From UHGV virus genome UHGV-1355377: a stretch of 41,184 bases of DNA; one strand, written 5' to 3'. This DNA comes from a virus. Positions 3,792 to 29,348 of the stretch are shown piece by piece; position 1 is the first letter of the stretch; each line of letters opens with the position of its first letter. The translations under genes were made by a program, and so were the position numbers. The notes beneath the pieces are model-generated. The model did not search any database and had not been told where the DNA came from. It was given only the letters and a program-made list of their open reading frames with translations.

Positions 3792-3809
3792 TGGAGGAGG
3801 TGTTTGTAA

Positions 3810-4043
3810 ATGTGCTATGATTACTCAAAATTAGCAGGAAGAATTGTTGAAAAGTTTGGAACTCAATATAATTTTGCTATCGCAATGGGATTGTCGGAGA
3901 GAACAATATCATTGAAAATGAACGGGAAAGTCTCTTGGAAAGACACTGAAATTACGAAAGCTTGCAAATTGCTAGACTTGGAAACAAATTTTATTCATTT
4001 ATATTTTTTTAAAGAGAAAGTTCACGCTTGTGAACAAAGGTAG
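3810..4043 (+). CDS. Cro-like small HTH regulator
   Basis: 77-aa ORF with HTH (FAIAMGLSERTISLKMNGK), divergent from the repressor. Confidence 0.7.
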   Translation: MCYDYSKLAGRIVEKFGTQYNFAIAMGLSERTISLKMNGKVSWKDTEITKACKLLDLETNFIHLYFFKEKVHACEQR

Positions 4044-4124: not shown

Positions 4125-4844
4125 ATGAACGAACTAATTAAAGTTACAACAAATGAAAATGATGAACAGTTAGTTAACGGTAGAGAGTTATATGAATTTC
4201 TGGGAGTTAAAGATAATTATACTGATTGGTTTAAACGAATGATTAAATACGGGTTTGATGAAAACGTTGATTTTATCAGTTTCTCGGAAAAATCCGATAA
4301 ACCTTTTGGTGGTCGCCCACAAGTAAATCATTATGTGAAACTAGACATGGCTAAGGAAATTTCAATGCTACAACGTACCGAAAGAGGAAAGCAAGCTCGT
4401 AGATATTTTATTCAACTAGAAAAGTTTTGGAATAGCCCAGAAATGGTGACTAAACGAGCTCTTGAATTTCAACAGAAAAAAATAGAAGTATTACAACTAG
4501 AAAATGAATCATTAAAACCTAAAGCATTATTTGCAGATGCCGTTGATGCAAGTAAGACTTCCATTTTAATCGGTGACCTAGCTAAGCTAATCAAGCAAAA
4601 CGGCATCGACATTGGGCAGAATCGTTTATTCCAATGGCTGCGAGACAATGGGTATCTAATTGCTCGAAAAGGTGAAAGCTACAATATGCCAACCCAACGG
4701 TCACTTGATTTGGGAATTGCAGAAATCAAGGAACGAACCCATAACAATCCAGATGGAAGTATTCGAATTAGTCGAACGCCGAAAATTACTGGTAAAGGGC
4801 AAATATATTTTGTTAACAAGTTCTTACATGACAAGACAGCATAG
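4125..4844 (+). CDS. Phage antirepressor, Rha (pRha) N-terminal domain with C-terminal KilA-C-like region
   Basis: N-terminus VNGRELYEFLGVKDNYTDWFKRMIKYGFDENVDF matches the conserved pRha signature. RBS GGGATGAAATCATATG. Confidence 0.75.
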   Translation: MNELIKVTTNENDEQLVNGRELYEFLGVKDNYTDWFKRMIKYGFDENVDFISFSEKSDKPFGGRPQVNHYVKLDMAKEISMLQRTERGKQARRYFIQLEKFWNSPEMVTKRALEFQQKKIEVLQLENESLKPKALFADAVDASKTSILIGDLAKLIKQNGIDIGQNRLFQWLRDNGYLIARKGESYNMPTQRSLDLGIAEIKERTHNNPDGSIRISRTPKITGKGQIYFVNKFLHDKTA

Positions 4845-4859
4845 AAAGGAGATGTCTAC

Positions 4860-5108
4860 ATGCAAATCACACTAGCAAAGACTATCGATTTACAGCAAGC
4901 TTGGATGGCAAAAGATGAAGCAATTGTTTATTTTGGCTATCAGCATCACAAACCAACATTTCAAAAACTTCTGAGAGAGTTTAAGGAACATAAAGAATTT
5001 AAAGATGGCTATAGACTCGTTACATCATGCATGCCAATTATCCACATTCAGAAATTTGATGAATTTTTGGTTTGGCGGGAAAAAAACAAGTATAAGCGAA
5101 ATAAATAG
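4860..5108 (+). CDS. Hypothetical early protein
   Basis: 82-aa ORF with RBS AAAGGAG just upstream. No recognisable motif. Confidence 0.5.
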   Translation: MQITLAKTIDLQQAWMAKDEAIVYFGYQHHKPTFQKLLREFKEHKEFKDGYRLVTSCMPIIHIQKFDEFLVWREKNKYKRNK

Positions 5109-5859: not shown

Positions 5860-6537
5860 ATGAACGAGAACAGCGAAAATTTAAAAGAATTGTTTGATGG
5901 GATGTATAAGCTGAAAAGCAAATTAATTCAACCAAGATTTGACGCAGAAGTTGCCTATACAACGAAAAAAGGTCCAATGAATTTCCAATATGCAACTCTA
6001 AAAGCGATTGAAGAAGCAATTAGAAAAGCTGCACAAGAATCCGAAAGCGGAATTGATTTTCAACAAAATGTCGTCAATGAGAATAATGCGTTAAAAGTCA
6101 CAACAATTATTACTCATGTTAGCGGTCAATATATCATTCATGGACCTTTTGAATTTCCAAACAGTGGCACCAATCCGCAAGGGCTAGGAAGCTTAACAAC
6201 TTATGCAAGACGTTACTCTTTGTCTGCTGCTTTTGGAATTGCTGCAGATAAAGACGATGATGGCCAAACAGCAGCTGAAAAGAACAGCGATACTTCAAAA
6301 GTTGATTTGATTAGCGGTAAACAGTTAGCTACGTTAAACGATCATATCAGACAACTTTCTGAGTTATCGAATTCTGAACTTGACTATGTGCGGAATGAAC
6401 TAAGTAAAGAATTGGATGTTGATGTCAATGAAAACATGCCGTCTAGTATGTTCAATAAAGCTGTTGAAGTTCTGAAACAATGGATACAACAATTCCAGCC
6501 ACAACCAGAAGAAAACATTACATGGGGGCAAAGCTAA
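5860..6537 (+). CDS. ERF-family single-strand annealing protein (recombinase)
   Basis: Conserved ERF block: NFQYATLKAIEEA...GSLTTYARRYSLSAAFGI. Confidence 0.7.
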   Translation: MNENSENLKELFDGMYKLKSKLIQPRFDAEVAYTTKKGPMNFQYATLKAIEEAIRKAAQESESGIDFQQNVVNENNALKVTTIITHVSGQYIIHGPFEFPNSGTNPQGLGSLTTYARRYSLSAAFGIAADKDDDGQTAAEKNSDTSKVDLISGKQLATLNDHIRQLSELSNSELDYVRNELSKELDVDVNENMPSSMFNKAVEVLKQWIQQFQPQPEENITWGQS

Positions 6538-7460
6538 TGACAAACGAATTAACAACAGAATTGCAGTTTAATGTTGATTTTAAAGCTAGTAAAATCACTA
6601 TCCAAAATGAAGCACAGTTGTCTGAGATGGTTGAGAGCGCAGTTAAGCACTATTCAACAATGATTTTCACAGATGAAAACATTCCTGAAGCTAAAAAAGC
6701 AAGAGCAGACTTAAATAAAGTTGTAACGTTGCTAGATGATCAACGTAAAGAAGTTAAAAATCAATATGATAAGCCGTTAAAAGATTTTGAGGAAAAAATA
6801 AAAAAATATACTGAAAAAATAAGTGAAGTTAGTTCAGAAATTAACGAAAGCATCAAATCATACGAAGAAGCAGAGAAGCAGAAACGAAGCAAAAAGCTTC
6901 AAAAAGTGATTGCTGAAATGTCTGAAAACTACAATGTATCCATTGACGAAATTGAAATTCCTAGTTCGTGGACTAATAAAACAGCTTTCACAGTTAAAGG
7001 TGAACCAAATAAGAAAACTATTGAGGAAATAGCGGCATCGATGGTAGCAGTTGCATCTGAAAAAGAACGTATAAAAAACGATAAGCTCATTGTTGAAAAT
7101 TATGCTAAGGCAGTTGGCCTTGACTCGTTTTCTTGGGTCGCATTAATTGATAAAGGGTCTACTGCACCAGAGCTGATGAAAGAAATTGATTCCGCCGTTG
7201 CTTTAAAAAAAGAACAAGAAGAACGTGAAAGAGCAAAAAAAGAACACGACGAAGCCATTGCTGCTTTGAAAACTGAAACAATCAACAATAAAACAGTTGA
7301 CACTGCGACAGGCGAAATCATCACAGAAGAAGCGCCAAAAACCTGCAAAAAACAACAAGAGAAAACAGTTACGTTAAGACTAACAGCAGAACATCAAAAG
7401 TTAGTTGCTCTAAACAATTTTATTATTAATAACGGGATTCAAGTGGAAGTGATTGAATGA
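6537..7460 (+). CDS. Acidic coiled-coil phage protein (recombination-module accessory)
   Basis: Likely start at ATG 6537, overlapping the ERF stop (TAATGA). K/E-rich. Possibly Sipho_Gp157/DUF1351-like; not verifiable here. Confidence 0.5.
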   Translation: MTNELTTELQFNVDFKASKITIQNEAQLSEMVESAVKHYSTMIFTDENIPEAKKARADLNKVVTLLDDQRKEVKNQYDKPLKDFEEKIKKYTEKISEVSSEINESIKSYEEAEKQKRSKKLQKVIAEMSENYNVSIDEIEIPSSWTNKTAFTVKGEPNKKTIEEIAASMVAVASEKERIKNDKLIVENYAKAVGLDSFSWVALIDKGSTAPELMKEIDSAVALKKEQEERERAKKEHDEAIAALKTETINNKTVDTATGEIITEEAPKTCKKQQEKTVTLRLTAEHQKLVALNNFIINNGIQVEVIE

Positions 7461-8149: not shown

Positions 8150-8353
8150 TTAATCCCACTCCACCAATTCATCATCGCCTTTTAAAACGACTTTATTCTC
8201 ACCAAATTCAATAGTTTCAATTTCTGAATAAGTTGGCGCTTCTTCATCGGAAGTTGAATCTAATTTAGTTTTGATTCGCAATTTAACAGTTGCATTTTCA
8301 TCCATTTTTTCTAAATGTTTTATTAACTCTTTAACTAACATAATAAAGTGCAC
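8150..8353 (-). CDS. Small acidic hypothetical protein (lone minus-strand ORF in a plus-strand block)
   Basis: 67-aa ORF; ATG preceded on the minus strand by GAGGTG-like SD. Confidence 0.4.
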   Translation of the reverse strand: MHFIMLVKELIKHLEKMDENATVKLRIKTKLDSTSDEEAPTYSEIETIEFGENKVVLKGDDELVEWD

Positions 8354-8414
8354 CTCATTTAATTTTTACTTTAAATATACAGAATTCTAGACTAAAAGGA
8401 AAGGGGAACGTACG

Positions 8415-24486: not shown

Positions 24487-25086
24487 ATGAAAACAAAAAA
24501 ACTATTATTGCCAATGCATTTACAATTCTTTGCTGATAATCCAGATACTGGCACTGGAGGTACGGACCAACCGGCCGGAGGTCAAGAGCAAACACCGCCA
24601 GAAGATAGCGGCAAAGATAAAGGTAATGAAAAAACGTTTTCTCGTGGTGAAGTAGCAAAAATGATCGCTGCTGAAGTATCAAAAACAAAAGAAGCTTGGG
24701 AAAAAGAGCAACAAGAAAAACAAGCAGAAGCAGAAAAACTGGCAAAAATGAATGCTCAGGAAAAAGCTGAACATGAAAAGAAACAGCTAGAAGCAAAAAT
24801 TGCGGAATTGGAACGTAGTCAAGCATTAGTTTCCATGTCAAAGGAAGCTTCTAAAATGCTTTCAGAGGCTAGTTTGCCGCATGACGATGATTTGCTAGGA
24901 TTGATTGTTTCAGATGATGCGGAAGCTACAAAAAAAGCTGTCGCTATTGTTACGAACTATGTATCAATGATTAAGAAAGAAAATGCTCGCCAAAAAACAC
25001 CAGGTGAGGGTGGACAATTTTCAACTGATAAAAAAGAAACCGAATCAGTTGCAGCTCTTGCAGCAAGTAAACGAATTGTAAAATAG
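24487..25086 (+). CDS. Head scaffolding protein
   Basis: Highly charged A/E/K-rich coiled coil, immediately before the major capsid gene. Confidence 0.65.
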   Translation: MKTKKLLLPMHLQFFADNPDTGTGGTDQPAGGQEQTPPEDSGKDKGNEKTFSRGEVAKMIAAEVSKTKEAWEKEQQEKQAEAEKLAKMNAQEKAEHEKKQLEAKIAELERSQALVSMSKEASKMLSEASLPHDDDLLGLIVSDDAEATKKAVAIVTNYVSMIKKENARQKTPGEGGQFSTDKKETESVAALAASKRIVK

Positions 25087-25098
25087 GAGGAAATATAA

Positions 25099-26031
25099 AT
25101 GAAGAAAAAACAATTAATGAAAATGGATATTCAAATGTTTGCTCAAACATGGAATCCAGACAACGTCACTGTATTAGAGAAAAAAGATGGAACAATTCCA
25201 GATAAGTACAACACTTTAATTTTAAAAGATGTGATGGAAAATTCTAAGTTAATGCAGTTGGCTAAATATGAAGAAATGGACGGCAAAGAAAAGAAATTCG
25301 AATACTTTGCAGAAGGTCCTGGGGCGTACTGGGTTGGTGAAGGCGAAAAGATTAAAACGTCTAAACCTAAATGGTTAAACGTAACGATGACTGCGAAAAA
25401 AATTGGTGTTATTATCCCAGTTTCTCGGGAATATTTAACTTATAAGATGTCTGATTTCTTTACTCAAATGCAACCAAAAATCGCAGAAGCATTTTATAAG
25501 AAAATTGATGCGGCTACTATCCTTGATAAAGAAAATCCATTCTCTCAATCTATTGAAAAATCTGTCATTGCAGCTAGTAATGTAATTGAGGGCGACTTGA
25601 CATATGACAACATTTTAGCATTAGAGGATTTGCTTGGAGAAGGTGAATACGATCCGAATGCTTTCATTTCTAATCGTAAGAATCGTACAGTGTTACGTGA
25701 AGCAAGTAAAAAAATTGGTGACACAACTCAATTTATTTATGATCGTGTCAGCAATACTATTGATGGACTACCTGTAGCAGATCTAAAATCTATGGATAAG
25801 GGAAACCTTTATACTGGTGATTTTGATTACTTGCGCTATGGTATCCCATTTAACATTAATTTCAAAATTTCAGAAGAAGCTCAATTATCTACTCTAACGA
25901 ATGAAGACGGTACGCCTGTCAACTTGTACGAACAAGAATTGGTTGCTTTACGAGCTACAATGGATATTGGTTTCATGGTCATCAAAGATGAAGCATTTGC
26001 TAAGATTCAACCAAAAGCTGCGGGGGAGTAA
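25099..26031 (+). CDS. Major capsid protein
   Basis: About 300 aa between scaffold and connectors. Strong stem-loop just after the stop. Confidence 0.7.
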   Translation: MKKKQLMKMDIQMFAQTWNPDNVTVLEKKDGTIPDKYNTLILKDVMENSKLMQLAKYEEMDGKEKKFEYFAEGPGAYWVGEGEKIKTSKPKWLNVTMTAKKIGVIIPVSREYLTYKMSDFFTQMQPKIAEAFYKKIDAATILDKENPFSQSIEKSVIAASNVIEGDLTYDNILALEDLLGEGEYDPNAFISNRKNRTVLREASKKIGDTTQFIYDRVSNTIDGLPVADLKSMDKGNLYTGDFDYLRYGIPFNINFKISEEAQLSTLTNEDGTPVNLYEQELVALRATMDIGFMVIKDEAFAKIQPKAAGE

Positions 26032-26093
26032 CTAGCCCTGTTGTCGGAAAAGTAACACCGACAACAAATGGGGCGACAATCGAACTAACTTAG
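26004..26093 (+). other. -1 frame ORF overlapping the capsid gene 3' end; encodes a conserved extension ...VTSPVVGKVTPTTNGATIELT*
   Basis: Open in the -1 frame from 26004 to TAG 26091-93. The peptide matches the one after the major tail gene at 12/21 identities, with synonymous third-position changes. 9-bp stem-loop at 26039-26066, 10 nt after the candidate shift site G_GGG_GAG (26022-28). Confidence 0.55.
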
Positions 26094-26104
26094 GTGGTGT
26101 TTAG

Positions 26105-26437
26105 ATGTCAGAGATAGCAAATGATGTAAAAAAATTATTAAATGGTAGTCTTGATGAAAAATTAGAAATCATTGAAAGACGTACAAAAGATCGGCTTCAA
26201 AATATATTGAATGTCACTGAGTTACCAAAAAGTTTTGATTCAGTTGTATATGAAGTCACTTTAAAACGATTTAATCGTATTGGCCAAGAAGGAATGCAAT
26301 CTTATTCTCAAGAAGGTTTATCTATGGCATTTCCAGACTCTGATTTTTCTGAATATCAAGATGAGATTGAAGAGTATAAGAATAAGGAAATAGAAGAACT
26401 TTATAAGCCTAAACGTGGGAGGTTTACATTTTCATGA
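26105..26437 (+). CDS. Head-tail connector protein
   Basis: 110-aa ORF, first of four small genes between capsid and major tail; canonical order. Confidence 0.5.
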   Translation: MSEIANDVKKLLNGSLDEKLEIIERRTKDRLQNILNVTELPKSFDSVVYEVTLKRFNRIGQEGMQSYSQEGLSMAFPDSDFSEYQDEIEEYKNKEIEELYKPKRGRFTFS

Positions 26438-26769
26438 GATATTTAGATGAAATTACCTTTGTAAAAAAATCTTCAGAATCGCATTATGATCCAAATTCAG
26501 GTGAATGGATTGAAGAAGAACCGTTTAGAAAAACTGCTGATGTCAATGTAACTGATATTGGTACAGATCGTTCTATTACTATTTTCGGAAGCATTAAAGA
26601 AGGGGCTAAGGTCATTAGGACACAGCCCCTTTTTGTTATTCCAGAATTTGATTACATTGAGTTTGAGGGGAAAACTTGGGAAGTTATTACAAGTAGAGTG
26701 CCTGCATTAAGAAATAGCTTGATTGTTCAGGAAGTGATTATTGATGGCAAGAAATCAAGTAAGGATTAA
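26434..26769 (+). CDS. Head closure / head-tail adaptor protein
   Basis: 111-aa ORF with overlapping stop-start; positional call. Confidence 0.5.
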   Translation: MRYLDEITFVKKSSESHYDPNSGEWIEEEPFRKTADVNVTDIGTDRSITIFGSIKEGAKVIRTQPLFVIPEFDYIEFEGKTWEVITSRVPALRNSLIVQEVIIDGKKSSKD

Positions 26770-27124
26770 TGGATTAGCTGGAATTTCTAAAAAACTAAAG
26801 AGAAATGCCCAACTTGATGATGTGAAAAAAGTTGTTAGAAATAACACAGCAGAATTAACCGCTAATATGCAAGCTGAAGCCGGAAAAGTGTTAACTGGAC
26901 ACTGGGAAGGTAAAAAGTTTGTTAAACCTACAGGGGCAACAAAAAGAAGTATCGTTATGAGGCTTTCGAACAATGGTTTTTCTGGGCATACAGGACCAGG
27001 AACAGAATACGCACCGTATTTAATAAACGGTACGAGATTTATGGTGAAACGTGATTTCTTTTTACCACCGCTGAAACAACAAAAAGTGAAATTTAGAACG
27101 GACTTGGAAAGGTTGATGAAATGA
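26741..27124 (+). CDS. Tail-component / neck protein
   Basis: 127-aa ORF; positional call. Confidence 0.45.
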
Positions 27125-27510
27125 TTAAAGCAAGAGATCAATCAATCTTCGATGAAGTGTATAAGAAGTGTCAATCACTGGGCTATGAAACCTACGATTA
27201 TAAACCTATGAATGATGTAGGTTATCCATTTGTCGAATTAGAAGATACTCAGACACTGCACCAAGCCAACAAAACTGATATTAAAGGTTCGGTTACATTG
27301 AATCTATCTGTATGGGGATTGGCAAAAAAACGTAAACAAATATCGGATATGGCTTCAGCAATTTTTGCTGAGGCTCTATCTATTTCTGAAACGGAAGGTT
27401 ATTATTGGTCGCTCAATATCCAATCAAGCGGTATTCGGTTAGTAGATGACATTTCGACTAACACACCATTGAAGCGGGCAATGATATCTTTAGAATTCAA
27501 AATACTGTAG
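27121..27510 (+). CDS. Tail completion protein
   Basis: 129-aa ORF immediately before the major tail protein. Confidence 0.45.
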
Positions 27511-27525
27511 AGAGAAGGAATATAA

Positions 27526-28056
27526 ATGGCTAATGAAGCAAAAGTAGCGGCTAAAGGTATTGATATTATTTTACTTTTCCGTTTGTTAAAAAAATCAAAA
27601 GAGGAAGCAGCATGGAAATTAGCTTTCCAGACAGAACATGAAAATACAAAAACAAAAGATAGTGACTCCGTGGCCACTAAAGATGGTCCGATTCGTATCC
27701 CAGGATCATTGGAAATTGATTTTTCAGCAACATCTATTTTATCAGTCGGTGATCCGTATGTTGATCAACTAGAAGAAGCTTTAGACAATGACGATATTAT
27801 TGAAATTTGGGAAATCAACAAAGCAGAAAAAGGTACAGGAGATAATGCTGACAAGTACAAGGCAACCTATTACCAAGGATATGTAACATCATTTGGTAAA
27901 TCGCCTAATGCTGAAGACACCGTAGAAGTTTCATTAGAATTTGGTATCAATGGTAAAGGCGCAAAAGGATTTGCAACATTAACTGCTGATCAAGAAGAAG
28001 TAGTTCAATATGTCTTCAAAGATACGACTATTGAAACAGCTGATCCGGGAAAGTAG
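27526..28056 (+). CDS. Major tail protein
   Basis: 176-aa protein before the Ig-like/chaperone/TMP block. Ends ...ccG_GGA_AAG_TAG. Confidence 0.7.
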   Translation: MANEAKVAAKGIDIILLFRLLKKSKEEAAWKLAFQTEHENTKTKDSDSVATKDGPIRIPGSLEIDFSATSILSVGDPYVDQLEEALDNDDIIEIWEINKAEKGTGDNADKYKATYYQGYVTSFGKSPNAEDTVEVSLEFGINGKGAKGFATLTADQEEVVQYVFKDTTIETADPGK

Positions 28057-28118
28057 ATAGCCCTTCTGTGGGAAGTGTAACTCCTACAGTCGATGGGGCT
28101 TCTATTGAATTAAGCTAA
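28044..28118 (+). other. -1 frame extension of the major tail protein; encodes ...VDSPSVGSVTPTVDGASIELS*
   Basis: Canonical -1 heptamer G_GGA_AAG (28047-53), identical to the G/GT chaperone site, directly before the zero-frame TAG. Bulged 9-bp hairpin at 28066-28089. Peptide is homologous to the capsid extension. Confidence 0.6.
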
Positions 28119-28133
28119 GAAAGGAAAATAAAT

Positions 28134-28586
28134 ATGGTGGATACTTTTAAAATTTATAAAGACCAAACCGAAGTTGTTTCCGGCACATCACCTTTAACTA
28201 TAACAGGAATGGAACCTAACACTTCAGTGCCGGCTGGTGAGTACCAAGTAACTCGTGTTGTAAATGGGAAAGAATCAGAGCGAGTAGATATTCCAGCTTT
28301 TAAAACATTGTCTATTGCTGTAACTGGCTTAGAGTTTTCTCCTAAAACGTCCACAGCAGATGCTGGTGCTGCAGGTAGCCGACAAATCACAGCAACTGTT
28401 TTACCTGAAAATGCAACCAACAAGAAGGTAAACTATGATATTTCACCTGTAACAGAAGGTCTTGCTGTCTCTGAAACAGGAAATATTACTTGGACAGAAG
28501 CGGTACCGGCTGGTGTTTATACCACAACAGGAACAACAGAGGATGGTAAAAAAACAGCTCAACACACCTTAACATTGAATAATTAA
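28134..28586 (+). CDS. Big_2 (bacterial Ig-like domain 2) protein
   Basis: ITATVLPENATNKKVNYDISP...GLAVSETGNITWTEA is a Big_2 signature. Same reading frame as the major tail -1 extension, separated by the single TAA at 28116-18. Own RBS GAAAGGAAAATAAATATG. Confidence 0.65.
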   Translation: MVDTFKIYKDQTEVVSGTSPLTITGMEPNTSVPAGEYQVTRVVNGKESERVDIPAFKTLSIAVTGLEFSPKTSTADAGAAGSRQITATVLPENATNKKVNYDISPVTEGLAVSETGNITWTEAVPAGVYTTTGTTEDGKKTAQHTLTLNN

Positions 28587-28647
28587 GCTTAAAATATAAA
28601 TTTAGAGGGCAGCTTAGTGGCTGTCCTTTTCTTATGGAGGAAAAGGC

Positions 28648-28998
28648 ATGCAAATCGAAATTAAAGGAAAAAAATATAACTGTATTTTTGGAGTCAAGTT
28701 TATTCGTGAATTGGATAAGCAGCATGGGGTAGTTCGCAATGATGTAAATCTTGGGATGGGACTAACAACATTATTACCGCAGCTAGTAAGTGGAAATATC
28801 GTTGTTTTATCTGATGTACTTTACACAGCTACCATTACGGAAAAAAGTAGACCTTCTAAGGATGAAGTAGATGAGTTTGTTGAAACTGTTGATGATATTG
28901 AGGCGTTATTTGATGAAACGTTGAAAAACTTAGAAGAAAGCAATGCGGGAAAGTTAACGGTCAGAAATTTCAAGAAAGCTCTGATGGAGAACAAGTAA
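28648..28998 (+). CDS. Tail assembly chaperone (gpG-like)
   Basis: 116-aa ORF before the tape measure gene. Contains G_GGA_AAG at 28947-28953. Confidence 0.65.
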   Translation: MQIEIKGKKYNCIFGVKFIRELDKQHGVVRNDVNLGMGLTTLLPQLVSGNIVVLSDVLYTATITEKSRPSKDEVDEFVETVDDIEALFDETLKNLEESNAGKLTVRNFKKALMENK

Positions 28999-29348
28999 GA
29001 GAGGAACTAACCTCAGCTGAAGCTTATGAAAATATTCTTATTAATTGTTTTCGTTACCTAGAAATTACTGATTTATCAGAAATTGAACGAATGACTTTGT
29101 ATGAATATGAAGTTAGGCTATTGGCGTTTCAGTTAAAAAGACTTGACCATGAAAGAGACCTCTATCTTCAATCTTGGCTAAATAACCAAATTAAGGCGAC
29201 TAAAGGTAAAAAATCTGAACCTTATTATAAGGAATTCAATAAGTTTTTCAATTATGAAGAACGAGAGAAGCTTATTTTGGGTAAATCATTAATTGATGAA
29301 AAAGTTGATATAGGAGCAATTGATTTATTAAGAAAAGCAAATAAGTAG
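28947..29348 (+). CDS. Tail assembly chaperone GT fusion: -1 frame open from 28917 through 29348 (includes the 29091 track ORF)
   Basis: Hand translation of the -1 frame is continuous across 28917-29348. Slippery heptamer G_GGA_AAG at 28947-53 in the zero frame of gpG. Matches the conserved G/GT arrangement upstream of the tape measure gene. Confidence 0.65.
   Translation, partial: GKVNGQKFQESSDGEQVREELTSAEAYENILINCFRYLEITDLSEIERMTLYEYEVRLLAFQLKRLDHERDLYLQSWLNNQIKATKGKKSEPYYKEFNKFFNYEEREKLILGKSLIDEKVDIGAIDLLRKANK

Follow-up and report, generated by a model that had tools for sequence, protein, structure and literature searches.

The major capsid protein (MCP) and major tail protein (MTP) genes of an Enterococcus phage each end in a putative frameshift site at which a homologous peptide of ~21 residues is inferred to be added, and this peptide resembles the first two strands of a fibronectin type III (FN3) domain, which are missing from an Ig-like protein encoded by a neighbouring gene. 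It therefore most likely anchors that protein to both head and tail. The window analyzed here is the whole 41,184-nucleotide genome UHGV-1355377, an E. faecalis temperate siphophage that is 98% identical to IME197 and EFC-1. An earlier note, made from the sequence alone, had reported a conserved peptide in the -1 frame past the stop codon of both genes. This observation was confirmed and lies well beyond chance, and its interpretation, that both peptides are translated, are reached by -1 frameshifting at the very end of the gene and act as a shared docking or decoration handle, is supported by comparative data.

The MCP gene (25099-26031, + strand) encodes a 310-aa HK97-fold protein (Pfam Phage_capsid, E 1.9e-31; PHROG 10, major head protein) and terminates at TAA (26029-31). 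Its -1 frame is open from 26004 and reads ...GG-VTSPVVGKVTPTTNGATIELT, with 21 tag codons from 26028 to 26090 followed by a TAG stop at 26091-93. The MTP gene (27526-28056, +) encodes 176 aa (Pfam Phage_tail_2, E 7.4e-18; PHROG 238) and terminates at TAG (28054-56). Its -1 frame is open only from 28044 and reads SGK-VDSPSVGSVTPTVDGASIELS, with 21 tag codons from 28053 to 28115 and a TAA stop at 28116-18. The -1 frame thus opens 8 codons (MCP) or 3 codons (MTP) before the tag, without a start of its own. The two peptides share 14/21 identities, rather than the 12/21 given in the earlier note. Their ungapped BLOSUM62 score is 69, against a next-best score of 30 among the 82,238 six-frame 21-mers of the window (mean -28.6, sd 13.3), and no third copy exists in the window.

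To examine the claim that the two DNA segments differ mostly at third codon positions, we calculated pN/pS in each frame. For this pair alone the support is weak (0.47 in the tag frame against 0.62 and 0.78 in the other frames). Across 39 distinct tags from relatives, however, the claim holds: entropy at codon positions 1/2/3 was 0.83/0.74/1.40, and pN/pS was 0.52 in the tag frame against 1.07 and 1.35, indicating purifying selection on the tag frame.

The putative -1 shift site of the MCP is G_GGG_GAG (26022-26028, +), as the earlier note had proposed, immediately followed by the TAA stop. GGGGGAGTAA occurs once in the window against 0.02 expected. This site is not a canonical X_XXY_YYZ heptamer, and we infer that the A-site tRNA-Glu would re-pair with GGA through a G.U pair. 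The earlier note had overlooked that the MTP ends in the canonical heptamer G_GGA_AAG (28047-28053, +), in phase and abutting the stop, which, given where the -1 frame opens, is the only place a shift can occur. The same heptamer, in phase, serves the tail-chaperone G/GT shift of this phage at 28947-28953. The frequency of GGGAAAG in the window is at chance level (5 against 4.1), so the heptamer is meaningful only through its phase and position.

We next analyzed related phages, the L-numbers below denoting their loci, for conservation of the -1 frame and of the stems, as the earlier note had suggested. The same tag follows two unrelated MCP types and several MTP types, always in a shifted frame that starts at a shift site abutting the stop, and it is 20–23 codons long. 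The MCP tag is invariant in all type-A MCP relatives. Among 42 distinct tag contexts, G_GGG_GAG precedes 24 and G_GGA_AAG precedes 9; the other -1 contexts carry A_AAA_AAA, G_GGA_AAC, G_GGA_AAA, G_GGG_GAA and A_AAA directly followed by TAA. The 23-codon tags of L114-133 and L137 follow C_CCA_AAA. L150, L151 and L166 reach homologous tags by +1 shifts at CCC_TAA/TAG, after both MCP and MTP. In-frame MTP-tag fusions arose twice, in phiEf11-type phages (197-aa MTP) and, through an independent 1-nt insertion, in L022. P0010 also has an in-frame tag. In L154, L171 and L170, G_GGG_GAG precedes a start-less Big_2 domain of ~90 aa in the -1 frame, and L168 has a variant with one extra codon before the stop. 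These data indicate that both peptides are almost certainly translated, although the evidence for the trans-frame proteins themselves is indirect. phiEf11 virions show two MCP bands about 3 kDa apart on gels, but mass spectrometry of phiEf11 did not detect the extension peptides (PMC5221750). From the sequence of this phage, the tryptic peptides expected of the long forms are AAGEVTSPVVGK and VTPTTNGATIELT for the MCP and VDSPSVGSVTPTVDGASIELS following ...ADPGK for the MTP.

The earlier note had also described a stable 9-bp stem-loop 10–12 nt downstream of each site. Locally, stable hairpins are predicted after both sites. The predicted MCP hairpin (26035-26074, +) includes the 9-bp stem 26039-47/26058-66 (dG -19.5 kcal/mol, z -4.9, with 0 of 200 shuffles as stable), and the predicted MTP hairpin spans 28054-28104 (+; core 28059-28099; dG -22.3 kcal/mol, z -3.8). 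Their cores begin 5–6 nt after the shift sites, not 10–12 nt, and thus within the 5–9 nt spacing of a stimulatory structure. Across 32 relatives, covariation was not significant: RNAalifold kept only a 3-bp CCC/GGG stem, and the stem of the earlier note was 70% paired against 68% in shuffled controls (45 of 500 shuffles). Conservation of the stem-loop is therefore not demonstrated; the hairpin is a possible frameshift stimulator, and the adjacent stop codon may itself be the stimulator.

To identify a partner for the tag, we examined the next gene (28134-28586, +), which encodes a 150-aa (16-kDa) protein, has its own RBS and starts 15 nt after the tag stop (PHROG 341). It comprises an N-terminal FN3 domain lacking strands A-B (about residues 1–60) and a Big_2-like Ig domain (about residues 62–144). 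A Pfam search of this protein matched positions 34–80 of 86 of the RGI_lyase beta-sandwich profile and, weakly, Big_2, whereas residues 2–54 of its homologue P0041 match fn3 profile positions 30–83 of 84 above the gathering score. All homologues of the 150-aa protein start at FN3 strand C, and about 63 of 110 representative clusters have this domain at residues 1–5. AlphaFold2 (AF2) gave pLDDT >90 for both domains, and the model leaves strand E unpaired. The top Foldseek hit is domain 2 of BppA of Lactococcus phage Tuc2009 (probability 1.00, rmsd 2.4 Å over 61 columns).

The tag corresponds to the two strands that this domain lacks, spanning about fn3 profile positions 2–29. The MCP tag aligns with the textbook FN3 A-B tags of L150 and L151, and these tags, joined to their ORFs, align to Pfam fn3 (PF00041) positions 2–68 and 2–73, respectively, across the junction, at the gathering threshold for L150 (25.0 bits) and above it for L151 (35.4 bits). 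The window's own tag joined to its ORF, however, gained no fn3 match and gave only the weak RGI_lyase beta-sandwich hit. A fused tag-plus-domain profile hit FN3con across the junction, and BppA domain 2 is the top sequence-profile hit for the window's ORF. Moreover, the tail of BppU, KPPTNLIVSDVTSTSAKISWENGG, joined to BppA domain 2 aligned collinearly with the tag-plus-domain profile (hhalign probability 93%, E 2.9e-7). A tag-only profile found nothing in the PDB and was not significantly similar to the BppU tail, the tag alone being too short to reach significance. AF2 did not dock the tag in two single-chain fusions, one direct and one through the natural ERKIN linker: tag pLDDT was about 51 and about 40, with no strands. 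As these alignments held almost no tag sequences, this is weak negative evidence.

Tags and the truncated-FN3 ORF co-occur in 116 sequences and are both absent in 56; tags occur without the ORF in 3 sequences, two of which are truncated loci, and the ORF never occurs without a tag. These counts are phylogenetically non-independent. Locus L171 has a tag but no truncated-FN3 gene within 11 kb, and tag-less MTP relatives lack the gene. One tag always ends 11–16 nt before the ORF start, whether the ORF follows the MTP or the MCP. Although the tag and the ORF share a frame in the window, continuous extension or readthrough into the ORF was rejected, as the relative frame differs in other loci and the ORF has its own RBS 11–16 nt after the tag stop. 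Concerted evolution of the two tags within a genome was visible only at clade level: both tags end LTW in L151, TAE in L166, IEME in L118-type loci (IEME/IDMK in L115) and IEL in the window. Within the Bacillaceae group, tags cluster by gene rather than by genome, and we do not use this as evidence.

Taken together, we propose a three-part virion-decoration system, to which we assign a probability of roughly 0.66. In this model, a fraction of ribosomes finishing the MCP gene shift -1 at G_GGG_GAG before TAA, and a fraction finishing the MTP gene shift -1 at G_GGA_AAG before TAG, so that the stop is bypassed and a 21-residue C-terminal tag is added. The tag would be strands A and B of an FN3 domain whose remaining strands, C to G, form the N-terminal domain of the separately translated 150-aa protein, with its Big_2-like Ig domain as cargo. 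The tag hairpin would complete the incomplete beta-sandwich in trans, anchoring one Ig-like protein non-covalently on both capsid and tail tube at an occupancy set by frameshift efficiency. Tag strand B is predicted to pair with strand E (SPLTITG) and strand A with strand G. Our analysis establishes the tags, the shift sites and their conservation, the coding selection on the tag frame, the natural in-frame variants, the truncated FN3 domain in the partner and the co-occurrence of tags and partner. The physical tag-domain complex, in contrast, is inferred by homology to the solved Tuc2009 BppU-BppA interface, and ribosomal rather than transcriptional slippage and a decoration or adhesion role for the Big_2 cargo are likewise inferences.

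The closest solved relative is the BppU-BppA anchoring of Tuc2009 (crystal structure 5E7T; Legrand et al. 2016, PMC4742702), in which a ~25-residue C-terminal beta-hairpin with an FN3 A-B sequence (KPPTNLIVSDVTSTSAKISW) on one structural protein completes the incomplete beta-sandwich (FN3 strands C-G, ending ...AFKT) of an accessory protein whose gene starts right after the hairpin. In Tuc2009 the hairpin is in frame and sits on a baseplate protein, and the truncated domain is at the C-terminus of BppA with a carbohydrate-binding module as cargo, whereas here the hairpin is inferred to be added by frameshifting to both MCP and MTP, and the truncated domain is N-terminal with a Big_2 cargo. The Tuc2009 paper states that the BppU hairpin completes a BppA beta-sheet but never uses the terms FN3 or fibronectin. 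Frameshift-added C-terminal Ig-like/FN3 domains on major capsid and tail proteins (Fraser et al. 2006; Lactobacillus A2 gp5B/gp10B; Listeria PSA, A118 and A500 Cps-L/Tsh-L; SPP1 gp17.1*; reviewed in PMC5009743) share with this phage recoding at the extreme 3' end of both genes. In those systems, as among the relatives of this phage, the shift can be -1, +1 or absent, interchangeably, and the shift sites include C_CCA_AAA and CCC_stop; the cargo belongs to the Ig/FN3 superfamily and is displayed outward. Their extension, however, is a complete domain of about 85–100 aa, as it also is, with a whole Big_2 domain, in the close relatives L154 and L171 and in L168 and L170, whereas here it is only two strands, with the rest of the domain and the cargo supplied by a separate gene product.

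The view of the earlier note that such a tag had not been characterised is only partly right, as a 21-aa -1 extension of the phiEf11 major head protein was proposed in 2016 (Stevens et al. 2016, PMC5221750). It belongs to the same tag family in a mosaic relative (about 92% DNA identity from window position 26052 on), but involves a different, unrelated MCP and a different shift site, A_AAA_AAA plus stop, followed by a stem-loop. The authors called it speculative, did not notice that the MTP (ORF15) ends in the same peptide in frame, and did not link it to ORF16 or to FN3. Literature searches for a described split-FN3 or strand-complementation decoration system on phage heads or tails found nothing, within a literature that did not extend to the Listeria phage paper PMC2786548. 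By analogy only, in donor-strand complementation in chaperone-usher pili and in engineered split-domain tags (SpyTag/SpyCatcher), an incomplete Ig-like sandwich is completed by one or more strands from another polypeptide, giving a specific and stable attachment; here there is no chaperone or usher, no isopeptide chemistry is evident, two strands rather than one would be donated, and the context is a virion.

Among the alternatives, an unlikely but best-surviving one is that the tags are made by frameshifting but work without the 150-aa protein, either strengthening subunit contacts by beta-augmentation between neighbouring MCP or MTP copies or acting as an assembly signal, as the essential long forms of Lactobacillus phage A2 do, in which frameshifted forms of both head and tail proteins are reported (as cited in PMC5009743). 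The failure of AF2 to dock the tag and the absence of a nearby partner gene in L171 are consistent with this view, but it is opposed by the lack of any truncated-FN3 gene without a tag, by the absence of the gene from tag-less MTP relatives, by the match of the tag to exactly the missing strands, and by the homologous BppU hairpin binding BppA in a crystal structure. It is also unlikely that the same products arise by transcriptional slippage of RNA polymerase on homopolymer runs (A7, G5). Although phiEf11-type MCPs end in a run of seven A and natural in-frame variants differ by one inserted base at the site, many sites are classic tandem-slippage heptamers with no long homopolymer (G_GGA_AAG, G_GGA_AAC, C_CCA_AAA), other clades use CCC_stop +1 sites, which are ribosomal, and the same G_GGA_AAG serves the conserved G/GT shift.

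Still less likely, the tags could be functionless, little-translated or untranslated remnants of a once continuous frameshift extension (FN3 plus Big_2) broken by a stop and restart. In the window the tag and the ORF are in the same frame, separated only by TAA and 5 codons, and L154 and L171 carry continuous -1 Big_2 extensions at the same shift site. However, the split after strand B is conserved across Enterococcus, Vagococcus and several Bacillaceae genera with different recoding types, the relative frame of tag and ORF is not conserved, a second tag sits on the other structural gene far from the ORF, the tag frame is under purifying selection, and in-frame fusions are maintained in several independent contigs. 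Finally, conservation of the 60-nt segments mainly as RNA, controlling translation of the downstream gene through coupling or RBS masking or acting as terminator or processing signals, is least likely, because despite the predicted hairpins and the RBS of the next gene lying right after each tag, variation is concentrated at third codon positions of the tag frame, pairing is no better than in shuffled controls, and +1-type and in-frame versions keep the peptide but not the RNA context.

A broader reading, which we consider only somewhat more likely than not, is that of a natural, non-covalent tag/catcher system built from a split FN3 domain, in which recoding sites dose a two-strand tag onto a fraction of subunits and a family of proteins headed by the complementary truncated FN3 domain, carrying varied cargo, plugs onto these tags. 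One accessory gene would thereby decorate both head and tail, and cargo could be swapped by recombination without touching the structural genes. P0010, whose decoration protein itself ends in a tag, would even allow chains to form. A 21-aa tag with a ~60-aa catcher domain that works on both capsid and tail would be a ready-made handle for phage display or engineering of Enterococcus therapeutic phages.

The model would explain a widespread but unannotated feature of Firmicutes siphophage genomes, namely 60-nt "spacers" after MCP and MTP genes and "second major tail protein" genes, and the trans-frame products should be annotated by gene callers. It adds G_GGG_GAG plus stop, a putative site here, to the list of recurrent bacterial -1 shift sites, and it links two phenomena that have been treated separately, frameshift-added Ig domains and the BppU-BppA hairpin anchor. 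It would also show how a phage can set decoration stoichiometry by recoding while keeping the cargo on a separate, exchangeable gene.

The window is an Enterococcus faecalis temperate siphophage that is 98% identical over 25000-28700 to phages vB_EfaS_IME197 and EFC-1 and 92% identical to phiEf11 from 26052 onward. The region encodes a scaffold protein (24487-25086), an HK97-fold major capsid protein (MCP; 25099-26031), four connector genes, a tail tube protein (MTP; 27526-28056), a 150-aa ORF (28134-28586), a tail assembly chaperone (TAC; 28648-28998), and a tape measure protein. No frameshift is annotated here in public records, which call the 150-aa ORF a second "major tail protein". Nucleotide homology with phiEf11 begins at about 26052, inside the MCP tag described below, and upstream of this point the two phages have unrelated MCP genes. 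The tag and connector region seems to be a mosaic junction where different head modules are joined to the same neck and tail module.

We first analyzed the -1 frames that follow the two structural genes. The -1 frame after the MCP reads VTSPVVGKVTPTTNGATIELT followed by a stop codon (26028-26093), and the -1 frame after the MTP reads VDSPSVGSVTPTVDGASIELS followed by a stop codon (28053-28118). The two peptides share 14/21 identities, with a BLOSUM62 score of 69 against a next-best score of 30 among 82,238 six-frame 21-mers of the window, and only these two copies were found. Thus, the observation of paired peptides in the earlier note held. The -1 frame is open for only 8 codons (MCP) and 3 codons (MTP) before the tag, so any shift must occur in the last few codons. 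These codons are GCG GGG GAG TAA for the MCP, giving G_GGG_GAG as proposed in the earlier note, and CCG GGA AAG TAG for the MTP, giving the canonical heptamer G_GGA_AAG, which that note missed. The same in-phase heptamer sits at 28947-28953, 15 codons before the stop of the TAC gene (Phage_TAC_12), where the -1 frame is open to 29348; this is the canonical, conserved G/GT -1 frameshift of tail assembly chaperones, and the 85-aa ORF at 29091-29348 is the tail of this -1 frame. The window therefore holds three putative -1 sites within 3 kb. Both tags contain stable predicted hairpins that start 5-6 nt after the shift site (z -4.9 and -3.8); however, conservation of the hairpins was not supported by covariation, and the abutting stop codon may be the main stimulator.

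To determine whether the tags are translated, we collected relatives of the MTP, relatives of the 150-aa ORF, and prophages in genomes, and scanned them for tag-like peptides. Every phage with a close MTP relative has both tags. A second, unrelated MCP type (phiEf11) ends TCA AAA AAA TAG, and its -1 frame reads IEAPKVESV(I/T)PTTDGASIVLS followed by a stop codon; at this A7 site the slippage could be either ribosomal or transcriptional. In phiEf11 and four independent contigs, one extra base puts the MTP tag in frame, giving a 197-aa MTP, and in another collected locus, L022, a different 1-nt insertion does the same. The phiEf11 MTP carrying the in-frame tag (ORF15; 4475-5068 of the phiEf11 locus L001) migrated at 28-30 kDa against a predicted 21.5 kDa, which the authors could not explain (PMC5221750). 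More distant Enterococcus phages use C_CCA_AAA, whereas prophages of Oceanobacillus, Siminovitchia, Cytobacillus, Virgibacillus, Alkalicoccobacillus, and Bacillus mostly use G_GGG_GAG TAA after both MCP and MTP, and some use G_GGA_AAC, G_GGA_AAA, or G_GGG_GAA. In an Alkalicoccobacillus porphyridii prophage (L164, about 5900-5990), G_GGG_GAG lies four codons before the MCP stop (GTG GGG GAG GAT CAA GCT AGC stop) and the -1 frame still runs into a diverged tag (SSLVIQSMETTTDGAVIEFN), so the shift site need not abut the stop. Three loci (L150, L151, and L166) reach homologous tags by the classic +1 site CCC_TAA/TAG, and in L151 and L166 this holds after both genes. A contig labelled as a Veillonella sp. 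metagenome-assembled genome (L160, JAWETS010000015.1) encodes a 150-aa protein 95% identical to that of the window, together with identical MCP and MTP tags; this is probably a binning artefact.

Furthermore, codon-position variation was evaluated across 39 distinct 60-nt tags. Entropy at codon positions 1/2/3 was 0.83/0.74/1.40, and pN/pS was 0.52 in the tag frame against 1.07 and 1.35 in the other frames. In three related loci, L154 (5971-6279), L171 (5130-5426), and L170 (5896-6288), the same G_GGG_GAG site at the end of the MCP or MTP is followed, in the -1 frame, by a complete ~90-aa Big_2 domain with no start codon; L168 (5962-6270) has a variant with one extra codon before the stop. This domain is homologous to the C-terminal domain of the 150-aa protein of the window, so that the Ig cargo is fused directly rather than delivered in trans. 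These are classical frameshift extensions, and they independently validate the non-canonical site. The cassette appears to carry a third kind of cargo as well: in L168, an Enterococcus phoeniculicola prophage, the MCP ends GGT TCG GGG GAG TAA and its -1 frame encodes a HeH/SAP-like peptide ending in LTVPELKALLDERAIKYAGNAKKQELIDLLEG (3794-3949), and Tuc2009 has a HeH/LEM-domain gene (orf40; 8184-8384 of the Tuc2009 locus L173) right after its head protein gene. Published SDS-PAGE and mass spectrometry of phiEf11 virions showed two MCP bands about 3 kDa apart, which the authors tentatively attributed to a -1 shift adding 21 aa, although the extension peptides were not detected (PMC5221750). Taken together, these data lead us to regard translation of both tags as very likely, in support of the interpretation of the earlier note that both peptides are translated.

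To establish what the tag is, we next examined the 150-aa ORF. All of its homologues are stand-alone proteins that begin M-x(1-3)-[FY]-x-[IV]-Y. In one homologue, P0041, residues 2-54 match Pfam fn3 profile positions 30-83 of 84 above the gathering score; therefore, the domain starts at strand C and lacks strands A and B. In L150 and L151, the +1 tags read PKQPVNLEASTTTDTVTLTWD and PKKPVNLKASDTTETSITLTWD, which are textbook FN3 A-B strands with the conserved Trp. Joined to their downstream ORFs, these tags align to fn3 positions 2-73 and 2-68 across the junction, with higher scores than the ORF alone, and the window-type tags align with them column for column. The window's own tag is too divergent for Pfam fn3, and comparisons using the tag only lack power. 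A profile of the fused tag-plus-domain alignment hit only FN3 domains in the PDB, and the best hit (FN3con) spans the junction. About 63 of 110 representative clusters found with the 64-aa N-domain have it at residues 1-5 of short proteins, and a few have it at the C-terminus. In PHROGs, the same N-domain heads several families with different cargo. Another homologue, P0010 (258 aa, from a 1148-nt contig), has two Big_2 domains and itself ends in an in-frame tag (EPEPEELDPPVVESITSTTDGASINLE), which would allow head-to-tail chaining of decoration proteins.

The relationship between the tag and the ORF was then examined among the 175 sequences collected (with redundancy). Tags and a truncated-FN3 ORF co-occur in 116 sequences, and both are absent in 56. 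Tags occur without the ORF in 3 sequences, two of which are loci cut at the relevant edge, and the ORF never occurs without a tag; these counts are not phylogenetically independent. The third sequence, L171 (an Enterococcus sp. AZ128 prophage), is a genuine exception: its MTP ends G_GGA_AAG TAG with a -1 tag ESPIVEDVTPTIDGAKLALK (7385-7447), but no truncated-FN3 gene lies within the 11.4-kb locus, and its MCP carries a directly fused Big_2 extension. MTP relatives at 63-84% identity lack the heptamer, the tag, and the ORF together. One tag always ends 11-16 nt before the ORF start; in the Enterococcus group the ORF follows the MTP tag, whereas in the Bacillaceae group it follows the MCP tag. 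The frame of the ORF relative to the tag varies, which rules out readthrough fusion.

We then searched for a structural precedent. AlphaFold2 (AF2) models gave the two domains of the ORF pLDDT values above 90, but strand E (SPLTITG) has no partner. Two AF2 fusion models left the tag disordered, although the alignments used carried almost no tag information. The top PDB hit in a Foldseek search was 5e7t_B, Tuc2009 BppA residues ~225-282 (probability 1.00, rmsd 2.4 Å), and this chain was also a profile hit. The paper describing 5E7T states that BppU carries a 25-residue C-terminal extension forming a β-hairpin, which "completes one of" the β-sheets of the C-terminal β-sandwich of BppA and so links BppA to BppU (PMC4742702). 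In the Tuc2009 genome, BppU ends in VKPPTNLIVSDVTSTSAKISWENGG, and BppA starts 1 nt later and ends in YRVYLDGTPVGGSKLLSFDLENLKAGTSYNVQVSQINGNVESDKSESVAFKTTLPK, which is the same A-B / C-G split, down to the AFKT ending. An hhalign comparison of our fused alignment against the BppU tail joined to BppA domain 2 gave a probability of 93% and an E value of 2.9e-7 over 73 collinear columns that include the tag.

Several elements of this arrangement are already known. Paired recoding at the 3' ends of MCP and MTP genes to add Ig-like domains is established for A2, PSA, A118, A500, SPP1, and T3, and a review notes indifference to -1, +1, or in-frame solutions (PMC5009743). The 21-aa extension of the phiEf11 MCP was proposed in 2016, and the interface in which a hairpin completes a sandwich is solved for the Tuc2009 baseplate. 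In the literature we could search, four things appear undescribed: that the extension is only the first two strands of a split FN3 domain, that the same tag is placed on both capsid and tail, that the remaining strands plus the Ig cargo come from a separate adjacent gene, and that this three-part arrangement, with G_GGG_GAG plus stop as the commonest shift site, is widespread in phages of Bacilli.

Whereas the tags, their shift sites, the selection on the tag frame, the truncated FN3 domain, and the co-occurrence of tag and ORF were observed directly in the sequences, the production of the tagged proteins and the binding of the tag to the truncated domain are inferred, the latter from the homology to BppU and BppA. 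The reading in the earlier note of a shared handle on capsid and tail is supported to this extent. We therefore infer that the MCP and MTP tags dock the 150-aa protein by completing its FN3 sandwich in trans.
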